From positions 138,853 to 202,852 of the forward strand of contig CAWINB010000004.1 of NCBI GenBank assembly GCA_963837465.1: a DNA stretch of 64,000 nt, read 5' to 3'. Made by a program: the position numbers and the translations under genes. The notes under the pieces are model-generated. The model was not told the DNA's origin. It saw nothing but the letters and a program-made list of their open reading frames with translations, and searched no databases. Of this stretch, positions 11,750 to 20,785 are shown in pieces. The stretch is from Candidatus Doudnabacteria bacterium. GTDB taxonomy: Bacteria > Patescibacteriota > Doudnabacteria > UBA920. Numbering within the stretch: position 1 is the first letter of the stretch; the number at the start of each line of letters is the position of its first letter.

Positions 11750-12475
11750 ATGAAATTTGTCAAAGTTAAAACCCGCGCCTTGTTGCCGCCGAAAGATGAT
11801 ATTTTTGGGGTGGTTGATAAATACCTGCCCAAACTCAAAGAAGGCGATGTTTTGCTCATCGCGTCCAAGATTTTAGCAATCCATCAGGGAAGATGCGTTA
11901 GAATTGAAAGCATAAAAAAATCCGCTCTGGTAAAAAAAGAGGCGGATTTTAGTTTGCCGGGAAATATGGTGGCGGGAGCGGAAATTATTTTGACCATAAA
12001 AGATTACACTTTAATTCCTTCCGCCGGAATTGATGAAAGCAACGGCAACGACTACTATATTTTATGGCCAAAAAATACAAATCGTCTTTGTAAGGATATT
12101 TGCGACTATTTAAAAAGGAAACATAAAATAAAAAGACTGGCGGTTGTGGCGACCGACAGCCACACTACTCCTTTACGCTGGGGCACGCAGGGCGTATCAA
12201 TCGGATTTTTTGGTTTGGAGCCATTGTATGATTACCGCGGCAAAAATGATATTTTTGGCCGCAAATTAAAATATACCCAAAGCAACATTGTAGACGCGCT
12301 TTCGGTTACCGCCGTACTTTTAATGGGCGAAGGAGCGGAAAAAACACCAATGGTAATCTGCCGCGGCGCGGAATTTGTAAACTTCACCACCAAGCACACC
12401 CATAAAAAATTGGTGATTGAGCCGAAAAAGGATTTGTATTATCCGCTACTAAGACAATTTAAAAGATTTAAATAA
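11750..12475 (+). CDS. CofE-like gamma-glutamyl ligase family protein (F420-0:gamma-glutamyl ligase homolog)
   Basis: 241 aa; blocks IPSAGIDESNG, LAVVATDSHTTPLRWGTQGVSIGFFG typical of the F420_ligase/CofE fold. Confidence 0.55.
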   Translation: MKFVKVKTRALLPPKDDIFGVVDKYLPKLKEGDVLLIASKILAIHQGRCVRIESIKKSALVKKEADFSLPGNMVAGAEIILTIKDYTLIPSAGIDESNGNDYYILWPKNTNRLCKDICDYLKRKHKIKRLAVVATDSHTTPLRWGTQGVSIGFFGLEPLYDYRGKNDIFGRKLKYTQSNIVDALSVTAVLLMGEGAEKTPMVICRGAEFVNFTTKHTHKKLVIEPKKDLYYPLLRQFKRFK

Positions 12476-12512
12476 TTGACCAAAATTGACATAATTTAAC
12501 CGCAACCCATTC

Positions 12513-13061
12513 TTGTCATTCTTAGAATCTATTTTAAAATTTATGATTAATCCTAAATACATCGCCATTGCCGCCATAACCATAGATGGCAAAATCGCCA
12601 AAGGCTCGGGACATATGTCCGACTGGACCAGCAAAGAAGACAAAAACTTTCTGCGTAAAATGCTGGACAAGTCCGATGTTATAATTGTCGGCAATAACAC
12701 TTACAAAACCGCAATCAAGCCGTTGTCAAAACGGAACTGTATTGTGTTTAGCAGATCAGCCGGTCAGTTTAACAGCAGATCAGCCAACCTGATGTACATA
12801 AACCCAAACAAAACTGATATAAAAAAACTAATAAAAAATTTAGGTTACAAAAAAATTGCCGTTTTAGGCGGCGCGCAAACTTACAGCTACTTTTTGGAAA
12901 CTAATTTACTGAATGAAATTTATTTAACCATAGAACCCCTGGCCTTTGGCACCGGCATCAGCCTATTTTCCAACAAAAAACCCGGCGACTATAAATTTAA
13001 GCTCGTCTCCATAAAAAAATTGAACAAAAAGGGAAGCGTGCTTTTGAGATATAAAAAATAA
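12513..13061 (+). CDS. dihydrofolate reductase-like (RibD C-terminal domain) protein
   Basis: IAIAAITIDGKIA...VIIVGNNTY...VLGGAQTYSYFL pattern of the RibD_C/DHFR family; true start may be Met at 12543. Confidence 0.55.
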   Translation: MSFLESILKFMINPKYIAIAAITIDGKIAKGSGHMSDWTSKEDKNFLRKMLDKSDVIIVGNNTYKTAIKPLSKRNCIVFSRSAGQFNSRSANLMYINPNKTDIKKLIKNLGYKKIAVLGGAQTYSYFLETNLLNEIYLTIEPLAFGTGISLFSNKKPGDYKFKLVSIKKLNKKGSVLLRYKK

Positions 13062-13063
13062 AA

Positions 13064-13091
13064 GAGCAGGCGCACGAAGTCCTGCTCTTAA
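13064..13091 (-). terminator. intrinsic terminator for the minus-strand gene 13155-13628
   Basis: hairpin aagagcagg...cctgctctt; the minus strand reads T-run (tttatttttt) immediately after the stem. Confidence 0.5.
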
Positions 13092-13154
13092 ATGCGGGGA
13101 TGAGGCTCCCAGAGACGGCGTTTAACGCGCGCCAATCGATAATATCCCCCTATT

Positions 13155-13628
13155 TTATTTTGGCTCATTATCCACCCCGGCCGCTTCTTCGAGGGTCTTC
13201 CCCAAGTCAGAAAATAACAGCGCCTCTGGCTTAACCTTAAGCACTCCGGAGATTTTCATCAGGTTTGCCAGATTCCACCCTCCCAAGCCTATTGATTCGC
13301 CGCTGAGCACTCGCCCGGTAAAAGATGGGTTCATGGCCAATTTTTTGGCGAACTGGTTGATGCTCTTAATTCCCTGCAAAACCCACAACAAATAAATATT
13401 TTCCGTTACGCGACCGAGCACACCGGGACGCTGGATATAAATCCAGCACAGGGAATTAAATAACCTGAGGCTTTCCTGAAGTTCGGCCATTTGGTAGAGT
13501 ATGGCCATAGACAGAATGGGAAGCAATGTCCGCATTTGTGACTCCAAATCTGAGTCCTTAAGCGCATACAATTTTTCCTCATCCTTTAACGACAGGCAGC
13601 TCTTCCCTGCAATAATTCTTTTTTCCAT
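13155..13628 (-). CDS. XRE-like HTH protein (paralog 1 of 3)
   Basis: 157 aa; C-terminal half INQFAKKLAMNPSFTGRVLSGE...LKVKPEALLF shares HTH-plus-tail pattern with the two upstream genes. Confidence 0.45.
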   Translation of the reverse strand: MEKRIIAGKSCLSLKDEEKLYALKDSDLESQMRTLLPILSMAILYQMAELQESLRLFNSLCWIYIQRPGVLGRVTENIYLLWVLQGIKSINQFAKKLAMNPSFTGRVLSGESIGLGGWNLANLMKISGVLKVKPEALLFSDLGKTLEEAAGVDNEPK

Positions 13629-13767
13629 CTCTATTCCTCCTTATTTTAGGGTTTTACCCTTCTAAATTCACCAACGCTGACGAACTTAGAAGGCGGGACA
13701 AAGTTGCTTGTCCCGTTAGGGCGAGATGTCCTCGCAAAGTAAATTTCCTCCAAATATATTTTTTAGC

Positions 13768-14256
13768 TTATTCGCTAGGTTTAACCTCCGAAACGGACTT
13801 TAAAAGTTTTTCTCGAAGGTCAACACAGAGCAAGGTATAAACCGAAGCACCAAGCGCTTCGGCAATACCGACAAAGGTTAGAGGTCTTGTCTTCTCAAAA
13901 TTCTTTAACCGTAGGTCGAGCATTCGACTCATTGTGCTTTGCGAACATCCGGATAATTCAGCCAACTTATAAATGGACAATTCGTGCAAGCCCATGAGAA
14001 GATGGACGTTTCCCTTAAAGCGTTTATGCACGGCCGGGTCTTTCAGCAACCTTTCAAATTTTTCAGAAAGGAGGCGGAGAGACCTTAACAGCTGCAGAGA
14101 CATCTGCAGAGCTTTAAAGTCATCGGGGCTTAGGGGTTCCAGTGGTTCGGGAGTGCAGGTGCTTTCTGGGACCATCGCCTTTTTTCCTGTCCCTCTGGGA
14201 CGCCCACGCCTTTCTATTTGCTTCTTACTCATCACAATACTCCTTTTTGCACTCAA
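13768..14256 (-). CDS. XRE-like HTH protein with basic N-terminus (paralog 2 of 3)
   Basis: 162 aa; RGRPRGTGKK AT-hook-like segment; SIYKLAELSGCSQSTMSRMLD helix-turn-helix. Confidence 0.45.
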   Translation of the reverse strand: MSAKRSIVMSKKQIERRGRPRGTGKKAMVPESTCTPEPLEPLSPDDFKALQMSLQLLRSLRLLSEKFERLLKDPAVHKRFKGNVHLLMGLHELSIYKLAELSGCSQSTMSRMLDLRLKNFEKTRPLTFVGIAEALGASVYTLLCVDLREKLLKSVSEVKPSE

Positions 14257-14626
14257 TCTCTTTCAGCCGATTTTCAAATTCCTGTCGAAGGTCAGCCGTA
14301 AGCAATATGCTTGGTTTGACTCGTAAGGACAATGCTATCAGCCGTAGCGTTTCAACACTTGGGTTGAAGTTTGGAAAATCCTTCCTAAGTAGCCTACCAA
14401 CATAGCTTCTGTTTTTGCCTGACGCTACCGACAGCTCTTCTGCTCCCATATTACGAAGACCCATCAAGACTTGAATGTTGCTAATCAGGATGTCCTGATT
14501 TTGGGTGTCCACCAAGTGAACCGAAATCCCAGTGAGCAGTAACTTAAAAATTTGTTTCAAGCTGGCCATACTGGCACCCTGCAACACCAGGTTATCCAAA
14601 AATGCCGCCTGATCTTTGGTTAGCAT
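14225..14626 (-). CDS. XRE-like HTH protein (paralog 3 of 3)
   Basis: 133 aa; MGAEELSVASGKNRSYVGRLLR HTH; strong RBS agggggacta before ATG; 32 nt overlap with the downstream gene. Confidence 0.5.
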   Translation of the reverse strand: MLTKDQAAFLDNLVLQGASMASLKQIFKLLLTGISVHLVDTQNQDILISNIQVLMGLRNMGAEELSVASGKNRSYVGRLLRKDFPNFNPSVETLRLIALSLRVKPSILLTADLRQEFENRLKEIECKKEYCDE

Positions 14627-14793
14627 TAGTCCCCCTAAACTTTGACGTATTCATGCCCCGCCGGGTATTTTTATTTTGACTAAAGAATCTAACATAAATT
14701 ATTACTATTGTCAATAGATATTTACTTTGGCTAAGTTATTTTTAGCTATAATTAAAGGTTAAATTGGAAACTAAATAATTTTGTGAATAAATA

Positions 14794-14822
14794 TTGACAC
14801 AAATGTTAGGACAGGGTATAAT
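14794..14822 (+). promoter_or_regulatory. consensus sigma70 promoter TTGACA-17-TATAAT for trmB paralog 1
   Basis: ttgaca 14794-14799, 17 nt spacer, tataat 14817-14822, 25 nt before the ATG. Confidence 0.7.
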
Positions 14823-14847
14823 GATATTAGGATATTAATATACATTT

Positions 14848-15618
14848 ATGGCGGAAAATAATTTTGAATTACAAAAAGCGCTGCTTTCTTTAAATTTCAG
14901 TGAAAAAGAAGCAAATGTTTATTTGGCCCTTTTGGAATTGGGCCAGGGTAGCGTGTCGGAAATCGCGAGGAAGTCCAATATTAACCGGACACACGGGTAT
15001 AATGTGCTGGCCGCGCTTTCTTCGAGAGGATTGGTCAGTATTTCCGGCAAGGAGCCGAAGCAGGAATATGTGGCGGAGTCGCCGGATAAGATTAAAGATA
15101 TGCTTAGGGCGGAAATTAAAAAAAATGAGGGATTTTTAAAACAGGCTGACAATGTAATCCCTAAATTAAAATCCATCCGAACCGTCCGCGGCCGCCCTCA
15201 AGTACGGTTTTACGAAGGCAAAGAGGGATTGAAACAAATTTACGAAGACACACTAACTTCCCACGAAACAATTTTAGCCTATGCCAGCGTGGAAGATACG
15301 CAAAGTACCCTACCGGACTTTTTTCCAAGTTATTATTTTAGACGCGCCGACAAAAATATTCATATTCGGGCGGTGTTTCCTGACACTGCCGAAGCCCGCA
15401 AACTGGTTAAATCCAATAAAATCCAAAAAAGGGAAACGGTATTAGTACCGTCCCAAAAATATTCCTTTTCCCCGGAAATAAATATTTACGACAACAAAGT
15501 TATGATAGCATCGTGGCGGGAAAAGCTTGGTATAACCATAGAAAGCCATGAAATATCCGATGCCATGAAAAAAATATTTGAGTTGGCGTGGATTGGTGCT
15601 AAAAGTTTAGAAAAATAG
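14848..15618 (+). CDS. TrmB-family transcriptional regulator (paralog 1)
   Basis: 256 aa; N-terminal winged-helix EANVYLALLELGQGSVSEIA; C-terminal sugar-binding-like domain; close paralog of 17442-18239. Confidence 0.8.
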   Translation: MAENNFELQKALLSLNFSEKEANVYLALLELGQGSVSEIARKSNINRTHGYNVLAALSSRGLVSISGKEPKQEYVAESPDKIKDMLRAEIKKNEGFLKQADNVIPKLKSIRTVRGRPQVRFYEGKEGLKQIYEDTLTSHETILAYASVEDTQSTLPDFFPSYYFRRADKNIHIRAVFPDTAEARKLVKSNKIQKRETVLVPSQKYSFSPEINIYDNKVMIASWREKLGITIESHEISDAMKKIFELAWIGAKSLEK

Positions 15619-15677
15619 GCAAAAGAAAAAGGCAGCACCGGATGCTGCCTTTAAAGTTACGAGCGTAGTCAGCAAAA

Positions 15678-16061
15678 TTATTTTTTCCTTCGGCGCCTCC
15701 TCATTTTTTGCTCCAGCTTAGCTATGGCGGCGTCAATGGAAAACTTGCCCGAACCGGCCTCTTTAGCCAACAAAACCTGGTGGGATTGGTCGGCTTTAAA
15801 GTCAATAATAGTAAAAGCCTGTCCGGTTGTTTCCACTACTTCAGGTACTTGATTGACAAATTGCGAGCGGCAGCAGCGGCATTCCCAAAGGTCTTCGTCG
15901 TTTCTGTCGACCTGGTTTTGAGAACATACCGGACAACCAAGCCATTTCTGGCGGGACCGCAACTCCTCCAAGGCAACGGCTGGACAACCAGGCTTATGAC
16001 CCTCTGTTTGCCTGCAATGAGGACAGGGAATTGCAAACATTTGTCTCGATCCAATAAACAT
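15678..16061 (-). CDS. zinc-ribbon (multi-CxxC) protein with poly-basic C-terminus, hypothetical
   Basis: 127 aa; CPHC...CPVC...CRCCRSQF cysteine pairs; C-terminal KMRRRRRKK; RBS ggaaggagg. Confidence 0.5.
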   Translation of the reverse strand: MFIGSRQMFAIPCPHCRQTEGHKPGCPAVALEELRSRQKWLGCPVCSQNQVDRNDEDLWECRCCRSQFVNQVPEVVETTGQAFTIIDFKADQSHQVLLAKEAGSGKFSIDAAIAKLEQKMRRRRRKK

Positions 16062-16191
16062 AAAATCCTCCTTCCAGAGCCTTAGACTCTTCCAAAAAAA
16101 CTAAAAATAATTTTCTTGGAAGAACGGACGAGAGGGCAAGGCTCGTCCTAAAGCGTGATGATAAAACATCACAAATCTGGACATAACGCCG

Positions 16192-16770
16192 CTATGCGGT
16201 TAAGTCAATATATTTGGTCGGCACCAAATGGAGCATAAAATTGGTTTTTCCGGCCCCAAGCTCCAATCGTACCCCGCTTTTCATCTCCGCATTGCTGGTA
16301 TTATCGAGTATGTAGCCGACTAAGCAATCGGCGTTGCTATAAGTTACGTGTACAGGATTGCCAGCGGTGAACTCGACTCCGTCCAGCTGCTGAATTACTT
16401 CGACAGGAACGGGCTTCCGGTTGTCGTAACCTTCGTCGGCGAAGAGGTATACTTCCGGAAACCGGTGATAGGTGAGTGTCCATTGAAACCACTCGGCAAA
16501 TCTTAAATGGCTAATGGTTTCAGTTGGCTCGTCGCCCTTGTATTCCTCCAAAAAACTTAGGTAGTCATTAATGGCGCCTTGGCGAAGCGCGGACAGCGGA
16601 ATTCGTATGGGCATCTCATGATCACTGAACAGTTCCGGAAATGCCAAGTTGAACTTAGCGATGACTTCGTCATCGTCCACTCCCCAGCTAAGCCAAGTAA
16701 CCAAATACTTCAGCCACGGATCTTTGAGCTTGCAGACGTTTTCCCAATTGCGATGGTATTGAATTTTCAT
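16192..16770 (-). CDS. hypothetical protein (no recognised domain)
   Basis: 192 aa; RBS aaaggagg 6 nt before ATG; co-directional with the flanking Cys-rich genes. Confidence 0.5.
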   Translation of the reverse strand: MKIQYHRNWENVCKLKDPWLKYLVTWLSWGVDDDEVIAKFNLAFPELFSDHEMPIRIPLSALRQGAINDYLSFLEEYKGDEPTETISHLRFAEWFQWTLTYHRFPEVYLFADEGYDNRKPVPVEVIQQLDGVEFTAGNPVHVTYSNADCLVGYILDNTSNAEMKSGVRLELGAGKTNFMLHLVPTKYIDLTA

Positions 16771-16901
16771 TTACTGCCTCCTTTAAAATTAGAGCTTGTG
16801 CTCCTCTCAAAACACAAAATGTTAATGTTTTGGGAGGAGCGGATAAACTAAATTTATCCGCCAGTTTCTTCTAAATAACCCCCTTATCTTTGTAGTCGTT
16901 T

Positions 16902-17243
16902 TTAATCGCTTATTTTCTCATCGGCTTTCCATTGCCTGAGCACCCGAATTTCAGCGTCAAGAAATATCCGCATAAATTCGACTGGGTCAGAGCAAGGGAT
17001 TGGCGTGCCGGTCGGGCCGTTGAACCCAAAGCAGAGATAACCCGATGGCTCGACAGATTCGCGAAACCCAATATTGAAGTAGCGAAAACGGTTCTTTACG
17101 AACTCAATTCGCTGCTTGCAAGTCTCGCAGGGTGCGCTGGCCGGACATCCGCCAACATGAAAAAACATCTGTCCTTGGCCGCTGGAAAAGAAGCGTGGCT
17201 TGCTCCAGCCTGCAATCTGAATCTGGTAGTGAGTTAGGATCAT
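16902..17243 (-). CDS. Cys-containing hypothetical protein
   Basis: 113 aa; HVGGCPASAPCETCKQ cysteine cluster; RBS aaggag; first gene of a 3-gene minus-strand operon. Confidence 0.45.
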   Translation of the reverse strand: MILTHYQIQIAGWSKPRFFSSGQGQMFFHVGGCPASAPCETCKQRIEFVKNRFRYFNIGFRESVEPSGYLCFGFNGPTGTPIPCSDPVEFMRIFLDAEIRVLRQWKADEKISD

Positions 17244-17403
17244 GTTAATGTGCTCCTTGCGTAACCCCGCCGGGTATTTTTGATTTTAACTGTCAAAAAT
17301 AACATATATTCAAAATATTGTCAATAATTAACGTCAAATTAATCTTCTTTATTGGTTTTATTTAAGGTATTTTTAAGTATTTTATATATTTTGTGGATTT
17401 ATA

Positions 17404-17432
17404 TTGACACAATTTAAAACACGTCCTATAAT
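17404..17432 (+). promoter_or_regulatory. consensus sigma70 promoter TTGACA-17-TATAAT for trmB paralog 2
   Basis: ttgaca 17404-17409, 17 nt spacer, tataat 17427-17432. Confidence 0.7.
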
Positions 17433-17441
17433 TAAAGCGCT

Positions 17442-18239
17442 ATGATCAAAACCGATTCACCTCTATATAAAGGTTTAATTTTAATTGGCTTTTCGCAAAA
17501 AGAAGCCAGTGTGTATTTGGCTTTGCTGGAATTGGGCAAACGGACCGTTTCTCCAATTGCTCGGTCAGCCAATATTAACCGAACCACGGTTTACGATATT
17601 TTGGCTTCGTTAATAGCAAAAGGCTTGGTAAGCGTTTCGGGAAAAGAACCACTGCAAGAGTACGTGGCGGAGTCGCCGGAAAAAGTTTTAAGGCTAATAC
17701 AAAAGGAAGTGGAAGACAAACAAGAAAATTTAAAAATAGCAGGGGAGTTAGTTCCCCAGCTTAAATCTATTTATAATGTTTCAGATAGGCCCAAGGTAAG
17801 GTTTTACGAAGGCAAAGAAGGGCTTCAGCAAGTTTATGAAGATACTTTAACTTCCCACGAAACAATTTTGGCTTATGCCAACGTAAAAGAAATGCATAGC
17901 GCTTTACCGGATTATTTTCCCAAATATTACAAACGCAGGACTAACCACGGAGTGCGCATACGCGCGATCGTTCCATCAAATAAAGAGGGAGCCGAACGGA
18001 CCAGCAAAGACAATGAAGAAGCGCGCGAGTCCGCCCTTGTCCCTGAAGATAAAGTCTACTTCTCTCCCGAAATTAACATTTATGACAATAAGGTTATGAT
18101 TGCGTCATGGAAGGAAAAACTGGGAATCATTATAGAAAGCAAAGAAATATCGGACGCGATGAAAACTATTTATGAATTAGCCTGGAGCGAAGCCAAAAGA
18201 TTAGAAAAAAGCTTACCAGCTATTGCAAAAATTCCTTAG
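17442..18239 (+). CDS. TrmB-family transcriptional regulator (paralog 2)
   Basis: 265 aa; long identical blocks with paralog 1 (VRFYEGKEGL.QVYEDTLTSHETILAYA, FSPEINIYDNKVMIASW). Confidence 0.8.
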   Translation: MIKTDSPLYKGLILIGFSQKEASVYLALLELGKRTVSPIARSANINRTTVYDILASLIAKGLVSVSGKEPLQEYVAESPEKVLRLIQKEVEDKQENLKIAGELVPQLKSIYNVSDRPKVRFYEGKEGLQQVYEDTLTSHETILAYANVKEMHSALPDYFPKYYKRRTNHGVRIRAIVPSNKEGAERTSKDNEEARESALVPEDKVYFSPEINIYDNKVMIASWKEKLGIIIESKEISDAMKTIYELAWSEAKRLEKSLPAIAKIP

Positions 18240-18420
18240 ATCTGCTATACTAAGTATAGAAAAGTTAGTTCTTCATTCGAAGAAACCAAAATAAAAAACA
18301 AATCAATAGTTTTTAATTGCCTTATCGTGAGATAATGCTTATATTGCCCTTACTTTTAGGGCGACGGGTCGCAAGGTTTGCTTGCGGCTCACAAAAAACT
18401 TCTTTTGGCTTTTCGAGAAT

Positions 18421-18477
18421 AACCCCTTTTACCAAACAGGCCCGACGGCCTTGGTAAATTAAGGGGTTTTTCTTTTG
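18421..18477 (+). terminator. strong extended intrinsic terminator
   Basis: long imperfect hairpin aacccctttt-accaa...ttggtaaatt-aaggggtt then TTTTCTTTTG; 180 nt downstream of the trmB-2 stop. Confidence 0.6.
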
Positions 18478-18520
18478 TTGGATTTAGTGTAAAATAGGAA
18501 AGCTTAATAAATTTTATGCT

Positions 18521-18560
18521 GATTTACAGATTATCTGATTTTACAGATAATCTGTAAATC
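18521..18560. promoter_or_regulatory. 40 bp operator-like palindrome (17 bp arms, 6 bp spacer)
   Basis: gatttacagattatctg-atttta-cagataatctgtaaatc; arms are perfect reverse complements; 16 nt upstream of the ATG at 18576. Confidence 0.55.
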
Positions 18561-18575
18561 GGAATCAATATCTAT

Positions 18576-18854
18576 ATGGATCAAGACGATATCAAAACTT
18601 TGTTTGACGACAAATACAAAAAACTGCTTGGCCAGTCCTACGAGGAATGGTCGGAAAACGGCCCGCAAAACGAAACCGAAGCCTACGCGCGCCTGCAGGA
18701 AATTGACGACGAGTTAAGGGAAAGCCACGACGAATGGTATGAAGCCGAAGGCGATAAAAAAGAAGAGCTGGAAGAATACCGCGACAAGCTGAAAGCGGAA
18801 TATGATTTCATAGAAGCGGCTTTTGGGCTGGAGGCTCCGGATAAGAATTGGTAG
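18576..18854 (+). CDS. small acidic hypothetical protein
   Basis: 92 aa, strongly acidic, predicted helical; followed by a terminator. Confidence 0.45.
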   Translation: MDQDDIKTLFDDKYKKLLGQSYEEWSENGPQNETEAYARLQEIDDELRESHDEWYEAEGDKKEELEEYRDKLKAEYDFIEAAFGLEAPDKNW

Positions 18855-18889
18855 GTTAGTGACAAAAATGACATAATTGACAAAATTGA

Positions 18890-18936
18890 ACAAAATTTAG
18901 CTCCGGGGCTTTAGCTAAATTTTGTCAATTTTTTAA
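18890..18936 (+). terminator. intrinsic terminator embedded in a TGACAAAAT repeat array
   Basis: stem acaaaatttagct / agctaaattttgt with loop ccggggcttt then T-rich run. Confidence 0.6.
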
Positions 18937-18963
18937 ATCTTTTAAATTTTGTTCAATTAATTC

Positions 18964-19629
18964 ATGCTTTACGTAGTAGCGACGCCAATTGGTAATTTAG
19001 AAGATATAACTTTAAGGGCAATAAGCTCCCTAAAAAGTTGTGATTTTGTAATTGCCGAAAATCCGCTTTATTCCAAAAGGCTGATGGAGCATATCGGGGC
19101 GTGGCCAAAAGAAATGGTGCAGTTTGCCGAATTTAACGAACAGCAAATTGTAAAAGATTTAACCAGGCGGCTGGCAAAATCCGACGGGTGTTTTATAACC
19201 AATGCCGGCACGCCCGGAATTTCCGATCCTGGTTTTCGCCTGGTAAGGGAGTGCGTAAAAGAAAATGTCGCTGTAGTCCCAATCCCCGGCGCCAGCGCCG
19301 CCATTGCCGCTCTTTCCGCTTCCGGATTGCCAACAGATAAATTTTTATTTTTGGGATTTTTACAAAAGACCGCGGCCAAAACCGTGAGCGCGCTGCAAAG
19401 CGCGGCGGACGCGGAAGCCACGGCAATTTTTTACGAATCACCGGAGCGGATTTTAAAAACTTTAAATTACATTAGCAACGCTTTTCCAACCAGCCAAATC
19501 GTCGCCGCCCGCGAACTAACCAAACTGCATGAAGAATTCATCCGCGGCACGCCAATGCAGGTAATAGACTCGCTTAAAGACAGGGCTTCTATAAAGGGCG
19601 AGTTTACTATACTAGTATCATTTAAATAA
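18964..19629 (+). CDS. rsmI: 16S rRNA 2'-O-methyltransferase RsmI-like (tetrapyrrole methylase fold)
   Basis: 221 aa; MLYVVATPIGNLEDITLRA...ENPL N-terminal signature of RsmI. Confidence 0.8.
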   Translation: MLYVVATPIGNLEDITLRAISSLKSCDFVIAENPLYSKRLMEHIGAWPKEMVQFAEFNEQQIVKDLTRRLAKSDGCFITNAGTPGISDPGFRLVRECVKENVAVVPIPGASAAIAALSASGLPTDKFLFLGFLQKTAAKTVSALQSAADAEATAIFYESPERILKTLNYISNAFPTSQIVAARELTKLHEEFIRGTPMQVIDSLKDRASIKGEFTILVSFK

Positions 19630-19660
19630 TTGACCATAATTGTCAAAATTGACATAATTT

Positions 19661-19978
19661 ATGGACCACTTCGAGTTACAAAAACGAACCAAAATATTTG
19701 CAGTCAGAATAATTAAGTTAGTTAAGTCTCTACAAGGCGATCCTATTGGAAAAATTATCGGCAATTATCAATTACTCCGATCCGGAACAGCGATCGCCGC
19801 TAATTATAGGGCCGCTTGTAGATGCAAGTCGTCAAAGGATTTTGTATCTAAGATCGGTACTGTGGTAGAAGAGGCCGATGAAACCCAATTCTGGCTGGAA
19901 ATCTTAGTTGAGTCAGATGTAGTTAAAATTGATTTAATCAAAGATTTATTAAAAGAAGCTGGTGAAACACTGCGATAA
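19661..19978 (+). CDS. four-helix-bundle protein (23S rRNA intervening-sequence protein family)
   Basis: 105 aa; block TAIAANYRAACRCKSSKDFVSKIGTVVEEADETQFWLEIL matches the conserved core of this family. Confidence 0.65.
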   Translation: MDHFELQKRTKIFAVRIIKLVKSLQGDPIGKIIGNYQLLRSGTAIAANYRAACRCKSSKDFVSKIGTVVEEADETQFWLEILVESDVVKIDLIKDLLKEAGETLR

Positions 19979-20068
19979 TGACTGCGTCCAAAGCGACAGC
20001 AGTAAAAAATTTGGGCAGAAAATAATTATGTCATTTTTGTCAATTTTTTAAATTTTGTTCAATATTTT

Positions 20069-20785
20069 ATGTCCGGGCATTCCAAATGGTCACAAATTAA
20101 AAGAACCAAGGGCGTCCTTGACCAGAAACGGGGACTTTTGTTTTCCAAATTGGGCAAAAAAATTTCCATTGCCGTTAAAGAAGGCGGCAGTGGGGATCCG
20201 GCTGCTAATTTTAAATTAAAAAGCGCGGTTGAGTATGCCAAGGCCCAGGGTATGCCCAATGATAATATAGACAGGGCCATAAAAGCCGGGAGCGGGGAAG
20301 CCGCGGGTAATATTAAAGAGGTTATTTACGAAGGCTACGGCCCGTTTGGCACGGCATTTTTGGTGGAAGCCGCGACAGATAACAGCAACCGGACTTTTAA
20401 CAACATCCGCAAAATTTTTAACGAGCATAACGGCAGTATTGGCGCGCGGGGCAGCGTAGCCTGGCAGTTTAATACTAAAGGCCAAATTTTGGTGGAGCGG
20501 GACAGTAACATCGAAAATTTAGAAATGGCGGCGATTGACGCGGGCGCCCAAGATGTTCGCGAGTCAGCGGAGGGTTTGGAAGTTTATACCCAAGCCCAGG
20601 ATTTACAAAAAATAAAAGAAGCTCTGGCAAAAGCCGGCGCCAAAATCGCGCAGGCGGACATTATTAAAGAATCATCACAAGGTACGGATTTGGCCGAACG
20701 GCAAAAACCGAAAGTTGAGGCTTTGTTCGCGGCGCTTGAGAACGATGAAGACGTTATCGCGGTTCACACATCAGCAAATCTTTAA
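20069..20785 (+). CDS. yebC: YebC/PmpR-family DNA-binding regulator
   Basis: 238 aa; MSGHSKWSQIKRTKG N-terminus diagnostic of the YebC family. Confidence 0.9.
   Translation: MSGHSKWSQIKRTKGVLDQKRGLLFSKLGKKISIAVKEGGSGDPAANFKLKSAVEYAKAQGMPNDNIDRAIKAGSGEAAGNIKEVIYEGYGPFGTAFLVEAATDNSNRTFNNIRKIFNEHNGSIGARGSVAWQFNTKGQILVERDSNIENLEMAAIDAGAQDVRESAEGLEVYTQAQDLQKIKEALAKAGAKIAQADIIKESSQGTDLAERQKPKVEALFAALENDEDVIAVHTSANL

Follow-up and report, generated by a model that had tools for sequence, protein, structure and literature searches.

Do three adjacent genes of no recognizable family, encoded in the same direction between two copies of one type of regulator gene, form a single system? We asked this question of a locus in a 64,000-nucleotide (nt) stretch of DNA (the window; positions below count from its first letter) from a Candidatus Doudnabacteria bacterium (assembly GCA_963837465.1, contig CAWINB010000004.1, positions 138,853 to 202,852), a member of the candidate phyla radiation (CPR, or Patescibacteria). 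Here, genes A, B and C sit on the minus strand between two TrmB-like regulator genes whose products are 59% identical to each other. A first-pass annotation, made from the letters alone, had put the trio forward as an undescribed functional module. What it observed was confirmed, including the hairpins between the genes; its reading of them as one functional module found no support, and we regard its interpretation overall as partly supported. Instead, A, B and C are probably the current cargo of a variable array of ORFan genes, attached to a conserved scaffold on the TrmB side of a Doudnabacteria-like CPR chromosome. Across related genomes, the scaffold is conserved and the cargo is combinatorial.

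Three genuine genes in one predicted transcription unit

Gene A (16902..17243, minus strand) encodes an ORFan protein of 113 amino acids (aa), gene B (16192..16770, minus strand) a protein of 192 aa and gene C (15678..16061, minus strand) a protein of 127 aa. Each begins with ATG and is preceded by a Shine-Dalgarno (SD) sequence: AAGGAG 9 nt before the start of A, GGAGG 7 nt before that of B and GGAGG 6 nt before that of C. The public gene call of an independent assembly of the same organism has identical A, B and C products, with TrmB genes of 265 and 256 aa on either side. Codon comparisons gave nonsynonymous differences (pN) of 0.09-0.33 against synonymous differences (pS) of 0.57-0.87 (for A, 0.17 against 0.73), that is, strong purifying selection, with dN/dS of 0.06-0.14 where synonymous sites were unsaturated, on par with the TrmB2 gene. 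The open reading frames (ORFs) and their SD sites, the matching gene calls and a pN far below pS thus show that these are real genes, and codon-level selection rules out spurious ORFs in a non-coding region. On this point the annotation was right: the three genes lie where it had placed them, co-directional and with good SD sites.

The array has one predicted promoter, of the sigma70 type, ahead of A (17296..17324, minus strand; TTGACA-17-TATTTT with an extended TG), and neither the A-B nor the B-C spacer contains a minus-strand promoter match. Downstream of C, a bidirectional intrinsic terminator with a U-tract (15628..15652) is common to C and TrmB1. Bounded by a single promoter and a single terminator, A, B and C are probably transcribed as one mRNA, in agreement with the operon that had been proposed.

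The three genes occur apart in related genomes

We surveyed the contigs that carry homologues of A, B or C together with 80 loci that surround relatives of TrmB2 in GTDB species representatives. Every combination was seen except the trio: the window reads A-B-C, and no other locus holds all three. A and B occur without C in L004 and L005, where a terminator follows them. B occurs without A or C in L001, behind a 75-aa gene and ahead of an island that ends in an integrase; in L002 and L003, behind a 169-aa and a 151-aa gene; and in L030, where a radical S-adenosylmethionine (radical-SAM) gene, a 76-aa gene and further sequence precede a B-family gene. A occurs without B in L013, upstream of a 144-aa 'CDGGPV' gene, and this 144-aa gene also follows a 209-aa gene in L019 and a member of the 75-aa family in L022. 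C occurs without A or B in L006-L012, followed by a 119-aa gene, and by itself in L021, which has the TrmB1> <C TrmB2> layout of the window without A and B. A, B and C are therefore found singly or combined with at least six other ORFan families, and none of the cargo families in the relatives' arrays had a Pfam match.

The first-pass annotation had itself taken failure of the trio to be conserved as a unit to speak against a module, and the survey of gene neighborhoods found just that, each gene occurring without the others. It had suggested a small nucleic-acid-targeting or stress/defense system, in which the zinc-ribbon protein C would bind nucleic acid with A and B as its partners. Such a dedicated three-component system would fit co-directional genes with one promoter and one terminator, the two conserved zinc sites of C, the adjacency of A and B in two genomes and the island-like flavor of the slot in which they lie. 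However, there is no second A+B+C locus, and hhalign comparisons of B with A and of B with C gave no relationship, the three proteins appearing unrelated to each other. Nor did we find a link to defense or to phages: PADLOC returned nothing for A, for B or for 33 B-family members (which also had no match in Pfam) and, in PADLOC-DB v2, a single weak zinc-ribbon match for C (PDC-S64, 18.5 bits), while tblastn of A, B and C against 50,697 INPHARED phage genomes found nothing. The arginine-rich end of C, which had been read as a possible nucleic-acid-binding tail, is not conserved either (see below). We consider a three-component system highly unlikely. A check for toxin-antitoxin pairs found no match of A, B or C to a toxin-antitoxin family; A and B are paired in two genomes, and each gene is also found alone. 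On the evidence of these arrangements, A, B and C are probably independent, exchangeable cassettes and not parts of a fixed three-part machine.

Three small proteins with few relatives

For protein A, a search of a 5.8-billion-sequence collection found one homologous cluster (P0008, from L013, 70% identity), and tblastn added the A-like gene of L004/L005 at 49%, making two homologous sequences in all. It had been described as Cys-rich; a Cys motif is present, and conservation across the alignment is limited to H29, C33, C39 and C42 (H-x3-C-x5-C-x2-C).

Protein B had three homologous clusters in the same collection, and when 1.84 billion representatives were searched exhaustively with a HMMER profile, its family grew to 31 proteins at E<1e-3, in about 30 clusters. 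Nearly all members are 160-190 aa long and align end to end, sharing the motifs NW..IC, GFPELFS, RVPxSALR, VPxE..QLxG and LxPAxxIDL. The invariant residues are W9, P45, F48 and P105, which read as a structural and not a catalytic signature. An AlphaFold2 model built from a 27-sequence alignment was confident (predicted local distance difference test, pLDDT, 87.5; predicted template modeling score, pTM, 0.83) and replaced one from a 4-sequence alignment that was useless (pLDDT 42.6). It predicts an N-terminal helical domain (residues ~1-95) and a C-terminal beta-rich domain (~108-190), and Foldseek found no match to it with a template modeling (TM) score above 0.25 in the PDB or BFVD. A scan of genome contigs with the B alignment yielded no relative, and the members P0009 and P0010 had none in 2.9 million viral contigs.

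Protein C had one homologous cluster in the 5.8-billion-sequence collection; its homologues lie in L006-L012 (51% identity) and L021. It combines a zinc knuckle (C13/C16/H22/C26), a zinc ribbon (C43/C46/C61/C64) and a conserved C-terminal domain, and both zinc sites are conserved. The tail, KMRRRRRKK in the window, is acidic in the 51%-identical homologue, and so appears to be lineage-specific and no feature of the family. The ribbon resembles the C4 zinc ribbon of the ribosomal protein eL43/L37ae, with the same CPxC-x14-CxxC spacing, and C scores 20-28 bits against eL43 models. This similarity stays below threshold, with residues 33-79 alone aligning (Pfam eL43/L37ae, 20.1 bits against a cut-off of 21.9; TIGR00280, 28.2 against 95.8). 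C scores far under the family cut-offs, and it differs from eL43/L37ae in an additional N-terminal CxxC-x5-H-x3-C site and an unrelated C-terminal domain; since the full-length gathering threshold is not reached, we rejected it as a ribosomal protein.

The description of all three genes as uncharacterized held. A and B had no match in Pfam, PHROGs, PADLOC or NCBIfam and none in a PDB sequence-profile search, and the model of B had no fold match. For C, the claim that no family is recognizable needs the qualification that the PDB profile search returned a generic zinc ribbon and nothing more, in line with its sub-threshold family matches. As the invariant residues of B are W, P and F alone and as C has two zinc sites and A one, the three are most likely non-enzymatic binding proteins.

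A conserved scaffold borders a hypervariable slot

The trio occupies a slot in a conserved gene order: CofE-like ligase, Vut_1, RibD_C, the slot, TrmB, a 90-aa protein, RsmI and YebC, corresponding to 11750-13061 and 17442-20785 of the window. The slot of the window thus lies between the RibD_C-like gene and the core regulator gene TrmB2. It is hypervariable in the window, L002, L004, L019 and L021, where it holds extra TrmB paralogues, small genes of Xre or CopG type and ORFan arrays. In L024, L025, L027, L028, L030 and L090, it is filled by a B12-binding radical-SAM gene of about 465 aa, divergent from TrmB, which is not found in the window.

This occupant raises the idea that B, and perhaps its neighbors, served as a radical-SAM accessory, for example as a substrate-binding or chaperone partner kept after loss of the enzyme gene. 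The slot ancestrally holds the radical-SAM gene, the B-family gene of L030 lies downstream of one, behind an intercistronic module of the kind described below, and in L014 a distant B-family gene is directly followed by one (1720-2862). These are two of about nine B-family contexts; the window, L001, L002, L004 and L016 have no radical-SAM neighbor for B, and the argument is one of pure adjacency. We hold this to be a very long shot.

Both regulators that flank the array carry the TrmB domain PF01978, which bears out the duplication that had been noted. TrmB2 (17442..18239, plus strand) is a winged helix-turn-helix (wHTH) regulator of 265 aa, divergent from A-B-C, and TrmB1 (14848..15618, plus strand) is its paralogue of 256 aa; they score 62 and 57 bits, respectively, against a cut-off of 25.6. 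The nearest relatives of TrmB2 are in metagenome-assembled genomes of Candidatus Doudnabacteria (77-80% identity), its orthologues in L002, L013, L019 and L021 are 77-82% identical, and it has 260 relatives among Patescibacteria species representatives. A TrmB1 orthologue occupies the equivalent position in L021 (64%).

In their N-terminal wHTH domain and in a length of about 260 aa, these regulators resemble TrmB and TrmBL2 of Thermococcales, and their ~90 N-terminal residues fit the TrmB structure 3QPH (residues 10-98). They differ in being bacterial, in having a C-terminal portion of ~170 aa in which no Pfam match was found, including to the TrmB sugar-binding effector domain, in being nearly always divergent from a variable partner and in occurring as several paralogues per locus. 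NCBIfam TrmB equivalogs score them at 18-39 bits against cut-offs of 500-650. In the 80 Patescibacteria loci (L017-L096), 81 of 86 TrmB copies have a divergent upstream gene, and the partners represent 48 unrelated families, of which 39 have a single member, while the regulator itself is 60-80% identical across classes: an odd pairing of a conserved regulator with a variable partner.

The scaffold extends into the intergenic region between regulator and cargo. A perfect-consensus promoter precedes both TrmB genes; that of TrmB2 (17404..17432, plus strand; TTGACA-17-TATAAT) matches at 12 of 12 positions, and 11 aligned loci show no variation in its -35 or in the blocks beside it. The cargo promoter stands back-to-back with it, and its TTGACAAT is invariant in the same number of loci. 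We also observed two blocks within 17330-17441, TTGTGTCAA and ACAA(AAT), that are separated by 12-14 nt, overlap the -35 of TrmB and do not vary among 11 loci; they could be an operator through which TrmB regulates itself.

The cargo -10 is followed by a 5' leader of about 40 nt, of the form GTTAAAACAAAAA-N1-3-CCCGGCGGGG-(C/T)ATGAATACGCAAA (17253..17290, minus strand; GTTAAAATCAAAAATACCCGGCGGGGTTACGC). Its 13-nt core, ATACCCGGCGGGG, occurs exactly twice in the window, before A (17265-17277) and before a second cargo gene, H1 (14656-14668), in both cases in a TrmB-divergent leader, one per paralogue. The leader also occurs in L002, L004, L006-L013, L019, L021, L022 and L058, and it is kept in L006-L012 although the adjacent TrmB there is just 33% identical. 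In L001 and L002 the core reads CCTGGCGAGG, a double change that preserves a CCC/GGG stem around a GGCG loop; in L001 it also occurs internally, right before the SD of B. Gene callers have mistranslated the leader as spurious N-terminal extensions (MVKTK.., ..KNTRRGMNT..). A link between the three genes and TrmB, which had also been proposed, is upheld by this conserved TrmB-divergent promoter and leader, which stand before A in the window and, in 10 related loci, before A, before C or before other cargo.

The second array in the window repeats this layout. Divergent from TrmB1 lie a second cargo promoter (14686-14714) and a second copy of the leader (~14642-14680; together 14642..14714, minus strand), followed by H1 (14225-14626), H2 (13768-14256) and H3 (13155-13628), which span 13155..14626 of the minus strand and encode weakly paralogous helix-turn-helix (HTH) proteins of Cro/C1 type. 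An H3 orthologue lies at the equivalent place in L021.

These features bear on whether the locus is the decayed immunity region of a prophage or integrative element, with the TrmB paralogues acting like CI repressors opposite Cro-like or early genes and A, B and C as early or 'moron' genes of a phage. Such an origin would be in keeping with a repressor gene set divergently against small genes, the three Cro/C1-type proteins of the neighboring array, the integrase island adjoining B in L001 and a slightly raised GC content over 13.0-17.2 kb. But TrmB2 is a core gene in a synteny conserved across many Patescibacteria, A, B and C had no match in the phage genomes, PHROGs returned no match to A or to B, and the vicinity is free of structural or replication genes. 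The leader and the hairpin 2 pattern of the intercistronic module, like P0009 and P0010, were without a match in the 2.9 million viral contigs. We therefore judge a phage origin very improbable.

Three further observations concern the flanks. In L019 (6799-8376) and L090 (7398-9050), a gene for a 525-550 aa HATPase_c_3 protein (a MORC/Hsp90-like ATPase) lies directly downstream of the TrmB2 orthologue, where the window has nothing. Between its RsmI-like and YebC-like genes, the window has a 105-aa ORF (19661-19978), with a similar, slightly shifted ORF in L025; it may resemble the four-helix-bundle '23S rRNA intervening sequence' protein family. In L001, positions 1-30 of the Logan contig are adapter-like, and the last residues of the TrmB ORF, ..RSEEHTS, are what an Illumina adapter usually translates to; this contig end is therefore artefactual.

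A two-hairpin module precedes each later gene

Within the arrays, each gene that is not the first is preceded by a module of ~90 nt with two adjoining hairpins, a GCUCU box and an SD. It runs from a variable GC-rich hairpin (hairpin 1) over 1 nt to a 17-bp AU-rich hairpin (hairpin 2; CUCUUCCAAGAAA...UUUGGAAGAG) and, after 3-6 nt, to a GCUCU(AA) box and the SD and start codon. Copy 1 (16777..16864, minus strand), before B, has hairpin 1 GCGGAUAAA..UUUAUCCGC, hairpin 2 and a GCUCUAAU box and scores 78.7 bits with covariance model R1. Copy 2 (16067..16153, minus strand), before C, has GGACGAG..CUCGUCC, hairpin 2 UCUUCCAAGAAA..UUUGGAAGA and a GCUCU box and scores 87 bits. Copy 3 (13636..13718, minus strand), before H3 in the second array, was absent from the seed alignment and scores 43.3 bits (E = 7e-8). 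The paired hairpins reported in both spacers are thus two copies of one conserved module; the example hairpins, such as GCGGATAAA/TTTATCCGC at 16839-16861 with an adjoining longer imperfect stem of ~15 bp at ~16801-16838, were found again, and an extra hairpin lies beside copy 2 at 16157-16174.

The structure of the module is conserved beyond what its sequence would give. The spacers fold better than dinucleotide shuffles (z = -3.3 for A-B and -4.5 for B-C). Across nine module copies, the proportion of paired cells is 96.2%, whereas slid controls reach 51-62%, and compensatory changes are seen at 12 of 24 pairs (2-3 in the controls); none of 500 shuffles reached these pairing and covariation values. 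In the window, R1 finds its three copies alone, all on the minus (cargo) strand and inside the island. In 849 kb of other Patescibacteria TrmB loci, matches at E<1e-5 are confined to seven loci of the present lineage, L001, L002 (two), L004, L013, L019, L022 and L030, and the remaining two, in L023 and L045, are near E 0.04-0.1. Sense-strand scores of 75-95 bits against antisense scores of 20-29, together with conserved G.U pairs, place this structure on the sense strand.

These hairpins are not intrinsic terminators. No U-tract follows hairpin 1, which agrees with the annotation's remark that the hairpins lack T-tracts, and canonical U-tract terminators stand after the last genes of the arrays in the window, L001, L002, L004 and L030. 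Rather, the modules probably act on the sense RNA as punctuation that sets processing, stability or translation. An alternative partner for the 3' arm of hairpin 2 (AGAGC) is the GCUCU box (16777-16800 and 16067-16090). This pairing holds in 100% of 54 cells from 11 copies, with one three-way compensatory change, in the H3 copy; this variation is too low to decide the matter, and a mutually exclusive switch is possible. For the leader, the core (CCCGGCGGGG) could be a DNA operator instead of an RNA element.

Such punctuation has established parallels. The repetitive extragenic palindromic (REP) sequences and bacterial interspersed mosaic elements (BIME) of E. coli and the early RNase III sites of phage T7 are likewise hairpins without a U-tract between cistrons of one transcript, with structure kept above sequence and plausible roles in mRNA stability or processing. 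REP elements are scattered over whole genomes in hundreds of copies; the module, by contrast, is found just in these arrays and has its own layout of two hairpins, GCUCU box and SD, a possible alternative helix and no Rfam family: cmscan of 13000-18700 at E<=1 gave no match for module or leader, just a 21-bit ctRNA match on the terminator.

The module does not travel with a particular gene, since the GGACGAG-type copy before C is almost identical to the copies before B in L001 and before the 144-aa gene in L013 and L022. This observation brings the arrays close to integrons and to clusters of attC sites lacking integron integrases (CALINs). Like these, they have a single promoter beside a divergent gene, co-oriented and promoterless genes that are mostly unrelated ORFans, an imperfect-palindrome repeat of ~60-120 nt between genes, conserved in structure and partly variable in sequence, and an order and content that vary among close relatives. 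They do present promoterless, co-oriented, exchangeable cassettes behind one promoter, and L001 has a tyrosine integrase at a distance of 10 kb from B. One could thus imagine site-specific cassette exchange, with modules as attC-like sites and the promoter and leader as counterparts of Pc and attI.

Yet the divergent gene encodes a TrmB-type wHTH regulator instead of the integrase IntI, and tblastn with the catalytic C-terminus of the L001 integrase found nothing in the window, where no general integrase HMM scan was made. On inspection, the module ends, which read ..TTTAGGACGAG.. and ..GCTCTAAT.., lack the core sites RYYYAAC/GTTRRRY (R''/R'). The repeat stands 5' of each gene, carries the SD and has its best fold on the sense strand; attC sites, by contrast, fold as bottom strands. 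Finally, the fusions lack precision: the leader of L021 joins hairpin 2 within its 5' arm (..GGGGTTTAAACGTAT|AAGAAAATTAGTTTAGTTTTTTTGAAAGAG..), and that of L001 joins the GCTCTAAT box directly via CAAAA microhomology. Such junctions favor homologous or illegitimate recombination over an integrase. The missing core sites, the sense-strand fold and the imprecise boundaries led us to reject the module as an attC site, and we view an integron-like platform as quite unlikely.

Discussion

Our preferred account, which we think probable, is that A, B and C are the present cargo of an ORFan array on a conserved scaffold. In it, transcription would start at a sigma70-type promoter back-to-back with that of TrmB, pass through the ~40-nt leader into the first gene and cross a ~90-nt module before each later gene, until a U-tract terminator closes the array. 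Judging from the arrangement of the genes, each TrmB paralogue would control its divergent promoter, TrmB2 that of A-B-C and TrmB1 that of H1-H2-H3. Hairpin 1 may protect the 3' end of the cistron before it, and hairpin 2, together with the GCUCU box, may define the 5' end of the next cistron or how accessible its SD is. Being repeated, the modules would also supply homology for the gain, loss and reshuffling of cassettes. The neighbors of these genes and arrays (Cro/C1-type HTH proteins, putative toxin-antitoxin pairs, the CopG-type gene of L004, the integrase island of L001 and the HATPase_c_3 protein of L019) prompt a weak guess that A, B and C have accessory roles in conflict or stress.

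Several points weigh against this account. The guess at conflict or stress draws on neighborhood flavor alone, and several of the neighbors were named by sequence appearance. That the genes share one transcript, that TrmB regulates them and that the modules act in the RNA are all things that we infer. The survey comprises about 12 independent loci, mostly on short metagenomic contigs, where the absence of a gene may reflect a contig end; the sequences of L004 and L013 stop soon after the genes seen. And the adjacency of A and B in two genomes leaves room for a functional A-B pair.

Read as a whole, the architecture is a variation on known themes: divergent regulator-operon pairs, variable islets, intercistronic structured repeats and integron-like arrays. 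Within it, the two-hairpin module, the leader and the A, B and C families are undescribed before, and our searches of the literature on TrmB in CPR/Patescibacteria and on integrons or attC in Patescibacteria found nothing relevant. The array may go further and constitute a cassette expression platform, in which a TrmB-gated promoter and leader drive exchangeable ORFan cassettes and the modules double as punctuation and recombination substrate. Though we give this a small chance, it would, if true, mean that accessory genes are sampled in an integron-like manner without IntI, by an unknown recombinase or by repeat-mediated exchange.

CPR/Patescibacteria genomes are tiny and about half of their genes are unknown, and how lineage-specific genes are acquired, expressed and turned over in them is largely uncharted. 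Our findings correct the tempting reading of three adjacent unknown genes as one 'system', and they provide a candidate new structured RNA motif outside Rfam and, in B, a family with a confident predicted fold that has no PDB or BFVD match. Taken together, they offer a concrete and testable scaffold that carries at least ten unrelated ORFan families in differing combinations, and with it a hypothesis on how accessory genes may be shuffled in reduced genomes.

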